Assembly: GCA_012295275.1 (NCBI GenBank) | Contig: CM022676.1 | Location: 2,604,001 to 2,668,000 of the forward strand | Origin: Chrysomallon squamiferum | Lineage: Eukaryota > Animalia > Mollusca | Reading direction: 5' to 3' | Length of the DNA stretch: 64,000 bases | Shown: positions 22,104 to 49,279 of the stretch, one piece after another | Numbering within the stretch: the stretch's first letter is position 1 | Layout of the letters: each line of letters starts with the position of its first letter | Translations under genes and position numbers: made by a program | The notes under the pieces: generated by a model | What the model was told of the DNA's origin: nothing | What the model saw: the letters and a program-made list of their open reading frames with translations, nothing else | Databases searched by the model: none

Positions 22104-22505
22104 TTAGTATGTTGATGTTTTCAGAACTTTCAGAGAAATGTGGACTACCATCAAGTCTGTTATAGCCAATTACACATAAATATTCTCCTGAATCACTAAA
22201 AGTCATTCCTGTCAGTTGAATCTGGATAAAAGATCCTGATTTGTCATCGTTGTCAGACTTTCCTGTCACTGTCGCTCTGGATCCAAAGTTATTTACATCT
22301 TTTAAAACAGCTTTACCTCCATTCTTTAGAGTGATAGCAGAAGCTATCATAACACTAGTACTGGGATTGCTGAGAAGTCTTCTGCTCACTGATACAGAAG
22401 TAAGTATATCAACCTCACTGATAATGTTACCAAGACTACATCTGACTGTCACAGGAACTCCTTCATAAACAGGACTTGGGCTGATTGTGAGTTGGGCGGC
22501 TTCAC
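22104..22505 (-). CDS. Gene C V-like Ig domain exon (resembles molluscan VIgL/FREP-type IgSF domain)
   Basis: 402 nt, phase 1-1, tacag| and |GTAAGT; VTVRC...IASA...RATVTG...FIQIQL...DSGEYLC. Family resemblance is from recall, not a search. Confidence 0.88.
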
Positions 22506-23011
22506 CTGTAAGTAAACATGAACAAAGAAATAACTTAAAAATGTAATAAACGTTTTCAATGTCAATGTTATATATTTCTTAATCTGAATAATACGTTTTT
22601 CATATAAATCGGAAGAAAACATTAATTTTAATTTAATGAGTTTGCTTCCATATTTCAAATATTTCATCACATATTGTAGCGCAATTGAAGAATTTTTCTA
22701 TGTCAAATTCATAGAATAATAGATTAGTAATGTATTTAAATAAATTTAAACCACTAAGTTTGAAACAAACAAAAAAATGAAACAATAATATTCTCAAGAG
22801 ATTATTTAAAATGCAAAACATTAATAATAGAATAAGAACATTTTTCGAAATAAAATGTAAATAAAAACACAGTATTTAAGAGGAAAGTATAATTGACGGG
22901 AGTAATATGATTATATTTTCAAACACACGGATACACTCAGATAGAAAGCAGGACAGACAGACAGGCAGAGAGAGAGACACAGCCATGCACACAATACAAA
23001 TAGATTTCATT

Positions 23012-23100
23012 TATATTTCAAAAATAAATTATATAATGTAACGGTCTGAATGTAGATATAAATATACTGCAATATCAGTCAGATAACATCGCATGTACAT
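23012..23100. repeat. Left arm of ~88 bp imperfect inverted repeat (partner 24719-24805)
   Basis: caaaaataaattatataatgtaac...cagataacatcgcatgtac is the reverse complement of gtacatgcgatgttatctg...gttacattatataatttatttttg. Confidence 0.85.
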
Positions 23101-23254
23101 CAAGCAGCTATATTTTGATAAAGATAATCAGTTACAAATAAAAAACAACAACTCGAGAACTATAAATATATGACACCCAACACTGCACTTATCCAAACTA
23201 AAAATCACTTATAAACCTGTTTATAAAATACTTGTATTTAGAGCTAAACAAAAA

Positions 23255-23309
23255 CAGTTGAAGTCAATGTTAAACTTGTTAATAAAATAACAGTCATTGT
23301 TGTGGACAT
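23255..23309 (-). pseudogene. Degenerate duplicate of gene C leader exon (MSTTMTVILLTSLTLTST), no donor
   Basis: Near-identical to 23483-23537 but followed by TTTTT instead of GT. Confidence 0.75.
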
Positions 23310-46100: not shown

Positions 46101-48096
46101 TAGTAATAGTGATGCTCTATCATCTGTTGAAGAAGGAAAGAAAGAATGAAAGAGAAAATAAATTTGTTTCAAAGTTTTTCACAATTTTATTTAATATATT
46201 TTAATCTGTCATGGAAGTTCTTACTGCAAACATTATATTCAAAACTGTTAAAAAGTGTTTATAAAAGGTTTTACAGTATAATAAAACAGCAGATTTGCAT
46301 TTATGTCACTCTCTCTCTCTGTGTGTGTGTGTGTGTGTGTGTGTGTGTGTGTGTGAAAGACAGGCATTAAGCTGTAACTTTATCTATGTTAATAAGCATA
46401 TTACTTAGTGTGGAACTAAAACAGTCAACATAGTATAAACTTCTTTTTAAAGCTTTTTTTTTTTATATCAGAATTAGAAGATAGAAATAAAGCTATTCCT
46501 TGATTAGTTAAGCAGAATCCACAAACAATCACTGGCATCTAGAAATTATCTGAAATAATGAAGAACGTAGCTAAGTGTATTGAGCTGAAGCAAAACGAAA
46601 AGTCTGGAATAAAAAACAAATTAATTTGGATCTGCTTCATTTGTTTATAACTTGATTTTCACATCAATAGTAGTAATATGTTTTGTTTTCTGTTGATCAA
46701 CATTATTGTGATTCTGTCTGGTTGGATGTTGGCTGTCTGCTGTATTGTTGCTCACGTCAGTTTTATTCAGTGAATCAGTGACTGACTGTTGACAAACTTC
46801 AGATCTTGTGTGTTCTTCACAGACATCTTTACTGATTGGGTTGATTCGCAGGTTTTACATATGTCTGATTATATGAGTAATCTTCAGAAATTTCATTATC
46901 TTCATCACTTCCATGGTTCCAAGACATATTGTGTGAAGATTAATTACCAATACATAAAAATCACGCCTTCTCTTATTTTCAATGGTAATGTTAGAAAATC
47001 AATTATAACAAACGGCATCAAACGCGTTTATGTAATTTTATAAACTCTTCCCTTACTTTGTTACATAATCAGAAATAAGAAAAATGAAGTGTTTCAAATG
47101 TATCAATGTTGATTAAGCTTTATAAGTTTGTCTTTGTTTCTACACTGAAACCCACATATCCATGAAAATATTTACTACAGATAATATTTTAAAAGTAAAT
47201 GCGGCATCTCAAGAAAAAAAGAGATGAGACAAGCGGGGCTTCCACAACCCAAGTTTCACTTTCATTTACATTGAGATAATAGGAAAGGAACTTGAAACTT
47301 TGGTCTTACATTATAAAATAAATTATGTTGTTAATATTAATTATACTATAAAGACTACACATATAAAATAAATCTCCTAGTTAATATTAATTATACTACA
47401 AACACTACACATATAAAATAAATCGCATTGTTAATATTAATTGTATTACAAATAATACACGTATAAAATAAATCACCTTTTTAATATTAATTATACTACA
47501 AATATAAAAAACAAACAACACATATATAAAATAAATCTACTTTGTAAAATTAATGATTCTAAGAATATAAAACTGCAAGCAATACAGATATAAAATAAAT
47601 CTCCTGGCTACTATTAATTCTACTACACATTTAAAACACCAAATAATGCAGACATAAAATAAATATTGTTCATAATGTTAATTATACTACAAAGACAAAA
47701 CATGAAAATGAAACAGACGAAAATTTAAGTAAAAATAATAAAAAATTAGCCCTCCTCTACTGAAAATATGAATCTCGTGATGGTTTATTAAGAATTATTT
47801 AACATAAAAACAACCATAGGTTTGACATCTTCGACATATAAGACACTGTATTTTTTAGGTTAAATACGTATATATATTTAGGTATACATATAGATAGATA
47901 GATACATAGATAGATGTAATTACGTGAGATGTATGTATGTCTAAGTTATCTATGTATTTATGTATCTGTGCATAGATATATATATATATCCATATATATA
48001 TATATTTGGATATGGAAGGAAAAAAATGAAGAGACAGACAGACTACTGAAGAGAGGAAAAGACAGTCAAAACTGCTTCACCGTTTCACAGACTTAC

Positions 48097-48214
48097 ACGA
48101 ACAAGAAAACGCTGACTACGACGAGTAACACAGAAGAGACTACAGCAACGGCAGTTACAGCAGTTTTGTTACATTCACAATCGATGATATTTTCTTTTAC
48201 AGTCGATGTGACAT
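48097..48214 (-). CDS. Gene C copy 2 stalk + TM1 exon
   Basis: 118 nt, consensus GTAAGT donor. Confidence 0.72.
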
Positions 48215-48877
48215 CTGGCTTGGGAGGCAACGTTAAATATGTTCATATAATTAATGATTATAAACCAAGTCAGTATCATCCATGATTACACCGAATATAC
48301 AAACACAATATTTGATAAAATTGTTTAGTCCGTGTATTCAAATTAATTTTCAACTTCAAGGTAAACACAATCAACTTTACTGTAAAGATGTGTTGACAAA
48401 ATAATTATTTAAGACATTACATATATAGTGTGTATTATCTATATTTTTATAGCTATCCTCATTATTACATCTAAATCTTATAAATTTAGGAGTAACTGTA
48501 CAGCTTACTAAGCAGTATAAACCACGAGTTTCAAACTTGTAAAGATATCGGCATCAAATAACATAAAATAAAAATATTGTAGTATCTTTTCTTTCTCGCT
48601 TATTGACTTAGATATTTTTACACAAGTACAAATAGCAGACATAAAACACATGAACATTTCATTTATCTGAAATGGCATCTTCACTTACTTTCTCTAGTAA
48701 TGTTCTATAATCAGTAATAAAAGAAGTGAATTCACCCAAATACGTCAACAACTAATATTATATAAAAAACCAAGTTTTAACTTTCTTTCGTTGGTAATGT
48801 TATATAATCAACAACAAAAGAAATGAAATTCTCTAAATGCACGACAACTCATAAAAATATATCATGTTTTCACTTAC

Positions 48878-49279
48878 TTAGTATGTTGATGTTTTCAGAA
48901 CTTTCAAAGAAATGTGGACGACCATCAAGTGTGTTATAGCCAATTCCACAGAAATATTCTCCTGAATCACTGCAAGTCATTCCTGTCAGTTGAATCTGGA
49001 TAAAAGATCCTGATTTGTCATTGTTGTCAGACTTTCCTGTCACTGTCGCTCTAGATCCAAAGTTATTTACATCTTTTAAAACAGCTTTACCTCCATTCAT
49101 TAGTGTGACAGCAGAAGCTATCATAACACTAGTACTGGGATTGCTGAGAAGTCTTCTCCTCACTGTTAAAGAACTAAGTGCACCAACATGACTGATAATG
49201 TTACCAAGACTACATCTGACTGTGACAGGAACTCCTTCATAAACAGGACTTGGGCTGATTGTGAGTTGTGCGGCTTCAC
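48878..49279 (-). CDS. Gene C copy 2 V-like Ig exon
   Basis: 402 nt, open; ...IISHVGALSSLTVRRR...MTCSDSGEYFCGIGYNTLDGRPHFF. Confidence 0.88.

Follow-up and report, generated by a model that had tools for sequence, protein, structure and literature searches.

The DNA analysed here, which we will refer to as the window, is a stretch of 64,000 nucleotides (nt) from Chrysomallon squamiferum (assembly GCA_012295275.1, contig CM022676.1, positions 2,604,001 to 2,668,000 of the forward strand). It is AT-rich (GC 24-33%), intron-rich animal DNA, and contains a 20.5-kb direct duplication detected by self-BLAST (5698-26218, copy A, vs 32532-52981, copy B). On the minus strand, each copy carries an exon encoding a V-set immunoglobulin (Ig) domain, which is around six times more divergent between the copies than its ~99% identical surroundings. 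The features on which the comparison rests are given below, the divergence islands having been delimited with a two-state hidden Markov model (HMM).

5698..26218, duplicated block, copy A (self-BLAST and alignment)
32532..52981, duplicated block, copy B (self-BLAST and alignment)
22104..22505, minus strand, V-set Ig exon, copy A, residue 102 being Phe, against Cys in copy B and most homologues
48878..49279, minus strand, V-set Ig exon, copy B, with Cys102
22133..22534, divergence island over the V exon, 25/402 sites (6.2%)
10082..10715, divergence island outside identified exons, 22/439 sites (5.0%)
25337..26218, divergence island at the block end, overlapping no identified exon, 45/615 sites (7.3%)

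Both V exons comprise 402 nt, with AG/GT ends, phase 1-1 and an open frame. They differ at 23 nt (5.7%), changing 16 of 133 amino acids (aa); four codons are purely synonymous, a further synonymous step lies in a double-hit codon, and NG86 counting gives 5 synonymous (S) and 18 nonsynonymous (N) steps over 95 and 304 sites. A first-pass annotation of this DNA, made from the letters alone, had estimated ~23 nt differences, ~16 aa changes and ~4 synonymous ones, figures which the recount reproduces, and had described the V exon as a variable island between near-identical copies, clearly above the local introns. This description holds, as only 35 of 3734 clean sites differ in the 2-kb flanks on each side (0.94%; Fisher P = 1e-9 vs the exon). 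The alignment of the whole blocks contains 421 differences in 20186 columns, and the exon also exceeds the whole-block divergence rate of 1.8% (P = 2e-6; P = 9e-5 corrected for 46 windows). Higher GC of the exon was rejected as the cause of this excess, a GC-aware background expecting 5.9 differences vs the 23 observed; the transition/transversion counts (8/15 in the exon vs 68/77) are uninformative. The HMM, run on 18335 clean columns of the A/B alignment with a background of 1.35%, returned three islands that jointly occupy 7.9% of clean sites; the borders of the one over the V exon nearly coincide with those of the exon, the island reaching 29 nt into the upstream intron. The V-exon excess is real and its island almost coextensive with the exon, yet it is not the sole island. 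A divergence peak at a functional exon with low flanks, as found here, is described by Fawcett and Innan (PMC3924837) as the signature of selection under interlocus conversion.

Support for these letters was drawn from assembled contigs of public runs aligned to the window, the displayed rows being the best-supported 40 of 425 and 40 of 196. These rows cover 7 of the 23 variable V-exon sites, the other 16 not being displayed. At 22157, 22177, 22407 and 22416 the copy-B letter falls short of the full depth in one or more runs, and at 22198, 22199 and 22248 it reaches 96-100% of the displayed depth, leaving 0-4% to the copy-A letter. The first-pass annotation had made its case depend on read support for the differences; such support appears as mixed letters at the four former sites and is lacking for copy A at the three latter, which may be private changes or base errors, since contigs drop rare variants. 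Without these three sites, 20/402 differences (5.0%) remain. Over a 2.9-kb stretch, 289, 436 and 314 contigs aligned in three DNA-like runs, only 63, 137 and 67 of them being at least 99% alike. Exon pieces (10 among those listed) differ by 3-14% from the window, and among 16 selected flank pieces six differ by 6-11%, three by 1-3% and seven are identical; summed contig depth was not taken as copy number. The copies are not an isolated pair, and both belong to a much larger family, represented by hundreds of contigs at 85-99% identity and holding possible donors.

The same contigs bear on whether A and B are really alternative haplotypes of a single locus that the assembly lined up in tandem, the peak then representing allelic polymorphism under balancing selection as in the major histocompatibility complex (MHC) or Alr2. 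A background divergence of 1-2% falls within the range of molluscan heterozygosity, the 6.3-kb satellite separating the copies is where a mis-join would be likely, and copy-A introns carry minority letters too, the copy-B letter accounting for 30-100% of the depth at the 11 of 22 flanking differences that are displayed. We nevertheless find this explanation quite improbable, as the outer flanks are non-homologous (copy A has unique DNA on its left and satellite on its right, copy B the reverse) and the contigs show many copies anyway. As for the block ends, homology stops abruptly and with little divergence on the left, and divergence climbs to ~7% on the right before homology stops.

The V-type Ig domain proposed at first pass is supported by a structure model and both fold searches, and the Pfam match comes close. 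The Pfam V-set profile (PF07686) scores 23.8 and 23.4 bits, just below the curated cut-off of 26 (E = 5e-5 and 7e-5), and both copies contain C22, C110 and DSGEYxC, that is, the B-F cysteines and the D-x-G-x-Y-x-C motif. An alignment-based model (18 rows; predicted local distance difference test, pLDDT, 93.8; predicted template modelling score, pTM, 0.87) shows nine strands in a two-sheet fold including C' and C'', so that the strands and the cysteine motif expected of a V-set member of the immunoglobulin superfamily (IgSF) are both present. The top Foldseek matches are nanobodies (E = 9e-8), and VIA returned antigen-binding fragments (Fab), single-chain variable fragments (scFv) and MPZ with Z 13.0-13.1 (root-mean-square deviation 2.6-3.1 over 109-117 residues), as well as nectin-family chains with Z 12.0-12.6. 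Neither V exon encodes the tryptophan usual in the core of strand C, or any other; since Trp-less Ig domains are already known (PMC9546547), we take this as an atypical V domain and not as one outside the fold.

The first-pass annotation had placed the changes at positions resembling the complementarity-determining regions (CDRs) 1, 2 and 3, and had proposed mapping them on a structure model. For this purpose, strand limits were taken from the model, strand names were assigned by us, and CDR-equivalent stretches were set by analogy with IMGT numbering. All 12 steps on the front strands (C, C', C'', F and G) are N (P = 0.038), and adding the BC, C'C'' and FG tips gives 16 N and 1 S; in the remaining 71 residues S steps prevail (2 N, 4 S; P = 0.03, in the direction of purifying selection), the N:S proportion differing between this face and the remainder (P = 0.008). 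The map places 14 of the 16 changed residues within the 62 front-plus-tip positions (P = 0.0008), with zero replacements in the 27 residues of the back sheet, and both replacements outside the front face derive from the three copy-A letters unsupported by contigs. Nine of the 16 fall in CDR-equivalent stretches (P = 0.003), so the clustering on one predicted surface stands; its location in loops does not, as 11 of the 16 lie on strands C, C', F and G and only three in modelled tip loops, for which reason "face" fits better than three CDR loops. Nine replacements, with no synonymous change among them, fall within 33 nt, closer together than expected by chance (P = 0.002). Among the displayed contig letters, those that match neither A nor B alter nine codons, every one on the front sheet or tips (P = 0.0007), and make a single synonymous change off the face; six of these codons are constant between A and B, all on the face (P = 0.004), which provides partly independent support. 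In the model, this spatial pattern supports selection favouring different front faces.

Synonymous sites are also raised, the V exon containing 5 synonymous steps vs 1.04 expected from the intron rate (P = 0.004; P = 0.02 for 4, leaving out the double-hit codon). The non-face part has 4 of them vs 0.5-0.9 expected, with 7.9% divergence per synonymous site (pS) and 1.2% per nonsynonymous site (pN), as expected of a domain on which purifying selection has acted over a longer time than intron divergence implies. In this light, simple positive selection, in which a recent duplication was followed by fast fixation of new point mutations on the face, with no exchange between paralogues, seems unlikely to us. 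The 16 N to 1 S proportion on the front face, the dense cluster of nine replacements and a pN outside the face close to the intron divergence would all agree with it; it does not account for the framework synonymous excess (4-5 vs ~1), for an island running into the upstream intron, or for a copy-B letter that is only part of the family depth at four displayed sites, suggesting shared old variants. Since synonymous sites are raised too, selection on point mutations since the duplication is insufficient, and the exon must have an older ancestry.

We therefore hold it reasonably probable that the two exons descend from older family lineages than their flanks, that their front face was diversified by selection, and that conversion or unequal exchange homogenised the flanks or imported the exon. 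The locus would be part of a birth-and-death cluster of V-domain receptors whose copies exchange DNA. Recombination among many near-identical blocks would keep erasing differences, and V exons with distinct binding faces would resist this erasure or be copied in as exon-sized tracts, the size of such tracts following from exons staying alignable between old paralogues as introns collect indels. With the framework conserved, the outcome would be an exon-sized divergence peak between otherwise homogenised blocks. The front face would most likely bind a varying partner side-on, be it a microbe, a parasite or a self/non-self ligand. Conversion is the mechanism of exchange that we infer, mixed letters in the (unphased) contig tables and raised synonymous divergence being the observations that bear on it. 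As for its direction, either the flanks were homogenised and selection kept the exons apart, as described for opsin exon 5 (PMC3924837), or one exon was copied from an older paralogue, and the data fit both. The exon value of 5.7% falls within the range of older paralogues and of the two other islands, and the rise to 7.3% at the right block end would fit a homogenised interior with an older edge. Diversifying selection and conversion, offered at first pass as alternatives, probably act together.

Several points weigh against this interpretation. Every test draws on the 23 differences of a single pair, and the whole-exon ratio of nonsynonymous to synonymous divergence (dN/dS) is only 1.14, not different from 1 (Fisher P = 1.0); it is thus not well below 1, the outcome that the first-pass annotation held to be damaging, nor in clear excess of it. 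The front strands plus tips alone reach only P = 0.077, and the face partition was drawn after the changes were seen, though from the strand limits of the model; Val37, and possibly other changed residues, are likely buried, the face being assigned by strand limits. The three copy-A letters mentioned above have no contig support, the third-variant rows are the best-supported ones and no census, and the unphased contig tables yielded neither a donor paralogue nor a conversion tract. Other exons of the block, those of a broken neighbouring gene included, also have more N than S steps (6 N/1 S in a fibronectin type III, FN3, exon), at lower density, and expression is shown at the family level only. 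Finally, two of the three islands lie outside identified exons and are equally divergent, so that patchy divergence without protein selection does occur in the block.

This last observation speaks for a neutral origin, in which random conversion from old paralogues left one of its patches on the exon, copy A being relaxed or dying and perhaps affected by base errors. A dN/dS near 1 and the unsupported copy-A letters point the same way. Furthermore, copy A has lost a Cys kept in 7 of the 12 homologues of alignment A1 (Cys102, Phe in copy A), and its first stalk and transmembrane (TM) exon, TM1, has a weaker donor (GTAAAT) than that of copy B (GTAAGT). Decay is also common here, the neighbouring Ig-Ig-FN3-TM gene having stops and frameshifts in both copies. 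We see neutral patchwork or decay as rather unlikely all the same: the islands are only 7.9% of sites and this one matches an exon, both copies retain open frames, splice sites and the C22-C110 pair, and the replacements leave the back sheet untouched and gather on one face, as decay or error would not do. Even a neutral transfer would need earlier selection in the donor family.

Besides the V exon, the following features make up the predicted gene and its setting.

23483..23537, minus strand, leader (signal peptide) exon, copy A, phase-1 donor GTAAGT
50256..50310, minus strand, leader exon, copy B
21323..21440, minus strand, stalk and transmembrane exon TM1, copy A, CxC stalk, donor GTAAAT
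48097..48214, minus strand, TM1 exon, copy B, donor GTAAGT
15172..15273, minus strand, second stalk and transmembrane exon (TM2), copy A
41856..41957, minus strand, TM2 exon, copy B, identical to copy A
14185..14286, minus strand, TM3 exon, copy A (prediction only)
13436-13403 and 13088-13007, minus strand, cytoplasmic exons with phases fitting TM3, copy A (prediction only)
40869..40970, minus strand, TM3 exon, copy B
26265..32531, AT-rich satellite between the copies, longest open reading frame (ORF) 72 aa

The gene is predicted to encode a single-V, type I membrane protein (leader-V-stalk/TM). The leader-V splice appears in contigs of runs X6 and X7, which come without a library record and behave like RNA; the joint (22503/23481) reads CT..AC (cut +2), equivalent to GT-AG on the minus strand. 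In two RNA-recorded runs there is depth on the V exon and zero depth in most adjacent intron bins. Expression is thus demonstrated for the family, not for copy A or B specifically. TM1 is the nearest in-phase exon after V, and an RNA contig piece matches it at 21337-21432 with 0 differences; the V-TM1 joint itself was not seen in the contigs. Contig loose ends past the 3' end of the V exon resemble, by eye, the start of TM2 (4 and 6 mismatches in 30), and the four displayed types of continuation after V resemble a transmembrane exon or a second Ig-like exon (30 loose ends being undisplayed). No third V exon or second-domain exon was found in the window by tblastn with the V exon and six homologues. 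The exons flanking V and TM1 in some contigs are absent from the window at up to 3 mismatches, and the shortest such exon pattern, searched at up to 2 mismatches, gave four window matches, near chance. Run X10, from another organism, contributed six short pieces only, none on the V exon, and provides no evidence either way.

Three stalk/TM modules follow one V exon in each copy (21440-13007 and 48214-39679, minus strand), each with possible short phase-fitting tails; TM1, TM2 and TM3 may serve as alternative 3' ends, or else be left over from genes whose V exons have been lost. The V exon is skipped in a run X7 contig (depth 5.7), which joins the leader region at 23482 to 21469, before TM1, the ends of this joint being non-canonical in this copy. 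A degenerate second leader exon, without start or donor, was recognised by eye at 23257-23311, 230 nt from the functional one. Below TM1, RNA-like contigs align to 19920-21076 at ~89-98% identity, which suggests a transcribed terminal exon or untranslated region in paralogues. Cys102 of copy B (variable sites 22198-22199 in copy A) lies at the predicted membrane-proximal end of the domain, and the TM1 and TM2 stalks carry CxC; a disulfide between them is possible in copy B, copy A having no Cys102.

Other Ig genes surround the predicted receptor. The broken Ig-Ig-FN3-TM gene runs from 10110 to 6400 on the minus strand (~36925-33220 in copy B), with the stops and frameshifts in its first Ig exon in both copies and two YxxL-type tyrosine motifs in a cytoplasmic exon (7077-6979). 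Upstream of the leader, on the minus strand, a Thr-rich stalk-like exon (26147-26113), decayed in copy B, and a transmembrane-like exon (25185-25119) probably form the end of a gene truncated at the block boundary. On the plus strand, an Ig and FN3 coding stretch with a frame break between its parts (55893-56649) is probably another IgSF pseudogene. The satellite (26265-32531, 6.3 kb) sits exactly between copies A and B, and consists of units of ~36-116 nt. Its T and C skew is strong, and a segment near 26690-27040 is inverted; a coding satellite was rejected, its longest ORF being 72 aa.

The sequence relatives point to a gastropod origin of the family. A HMMER protein search gave 35 hits at E ≤ 0.001 (best E = 2.7e-35); among the ten looked up by name, five belong to Gigantopelta aegis, one to Patella vulgata, two are unnamed and two are low-identity multi-domain proteins (from a bacterium and a shark), with no Alr protein among these ten. 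Word-index protein searches found nothing at E ≤ 0.001, alignment-based ones returned three proteins, all already in the alignment, a metagenome scan gave 459 pattern matches and no relative, and the ESM Atlas yielded generic V-set clusters only. The closest named relatives (G. aegis XP_041376960, XP_041373743, XP_041373078 and XP_041372686; P. vulgata XP_055958859) are 26-38% identical over the domain. They share a Trp-less V domain and the RATVTG and C-x-D-S-G-x-Y-x-C stretches, and their second domain opens with a PG motif, like the exon after V in some contigs here. In most of them V is repeated in tandem or accompanied by a second Ig-like domain, whereas the window gene is predicted to have one V, a stalk and a TM segment; they are uncharacterised, with no function described.

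The V domains of antibodies, T-cell receptors (TCRs), nectins and MPZ share the V-set fold at an identity of only 9-22%. The window domain differs in lacking the core Trp and in lying, strand G included, on one germline exon. An antigen receptor with V(D)J-like rearrangement was rejected, given the full domain on one exon ending in a splice donor and the lack of a recombination signal: no heptamer-nonamer match to the consensus occurs in the window, and no heptamer word in the 80 nt after either V exon.

Among systems with a comparable divergence pattern, human red/green opsin exon 5, the MHC and R-gene clusters likewise have a single diverged exon amid introns that are nearly identical between the tandem copies (PMC3924837). 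For the opsins, functional sites and conversion have been demonstrated with two copies, whereas there are many copies here and conversion is an interpretation. A parallel in organisation is the Alr family of Hydractinia, Alr2 included, to which we liken the window family. It consists of single-pass IgSF receptors in a cluster with pseudogenes (PMC8282982; PMC9546547); a single exon encodes the N-terminal V-set domain, sites that vary and are under positive selection lie at its C/C' side, and conversion or unequal crossing over has shuffled exons with those of pseudogenes. Side-on binding has been proposed for Alr2 (PMC8282982). Alr differs in being cnidarian and in its ectodomain (V, I-set and Fn3-like domains, against the predicted V plus TM); allelic polymorphism and homophilic binding were shown there, whereas we compare paralogues from their sequence. 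By analogy, the exon may work like Alr2 domain 1 or the opsin peak.

Within gastropods, the VIgLs (FREP, CREP and GREP) and the PTC1/PTC2 genes of Biomphalaria are snail recognition genes in tandem clusters; published work describes FREP IgSF domains as diversified by conversion and point mutation, and PTCs as hyperdiverse single-pass proteins, some with Ig or FN3 domains (PMC12074976; PMC10875847; PMC13712769). FREPs are secreted with a lectin domain, whereas V is followed here by transmembrane or second-Ig exons. VIgLs are secreted and join IgSF to fibrinogen, C-lectin or galectin domains; the displayed continuations here are TM or Ig-like, no whole-window lectin scan having been made. The window does hold a cluster of single-pass genes with hypervariable ectodomains (several TM exons and Ig/FN3 genes in 64 kb, many divergent contig copies), and its likeness to PTCs is one of cluster organisation. 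Going by its exons, the gene does not look like a FREP, and kinship with Alr or PTC is not demonstrated. It is conceivable, if doubtful, that we are dealing with a gastropod counterpart of Alr/paired-receptor systems, a large family of membrane-bound receptors in which exon-sized V cassettes are exchanged among copies and alternative splicing of stalk, TM and tail would create a combinatorial repertoire for symbionts, parasites or self. The evolutionary pattern itself is textbook and the gastropod family uncharacterised, our literature search, which scarcely covered subscription journals, having found no paper describing it; three alternative TM modules behind one V exon would possibly be its most unusual feature. 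Diversified snail Ig recognition molecules are known mainly as secreted FREPs and as the transmembrane clusters of Biomphalaria, and what this locus indicates is a family of membrane V-domain receptors, multi-copy, expressed and so far undescribed, in a different gastropod lineage, with the front sheet and tips as the candidate binding surface.

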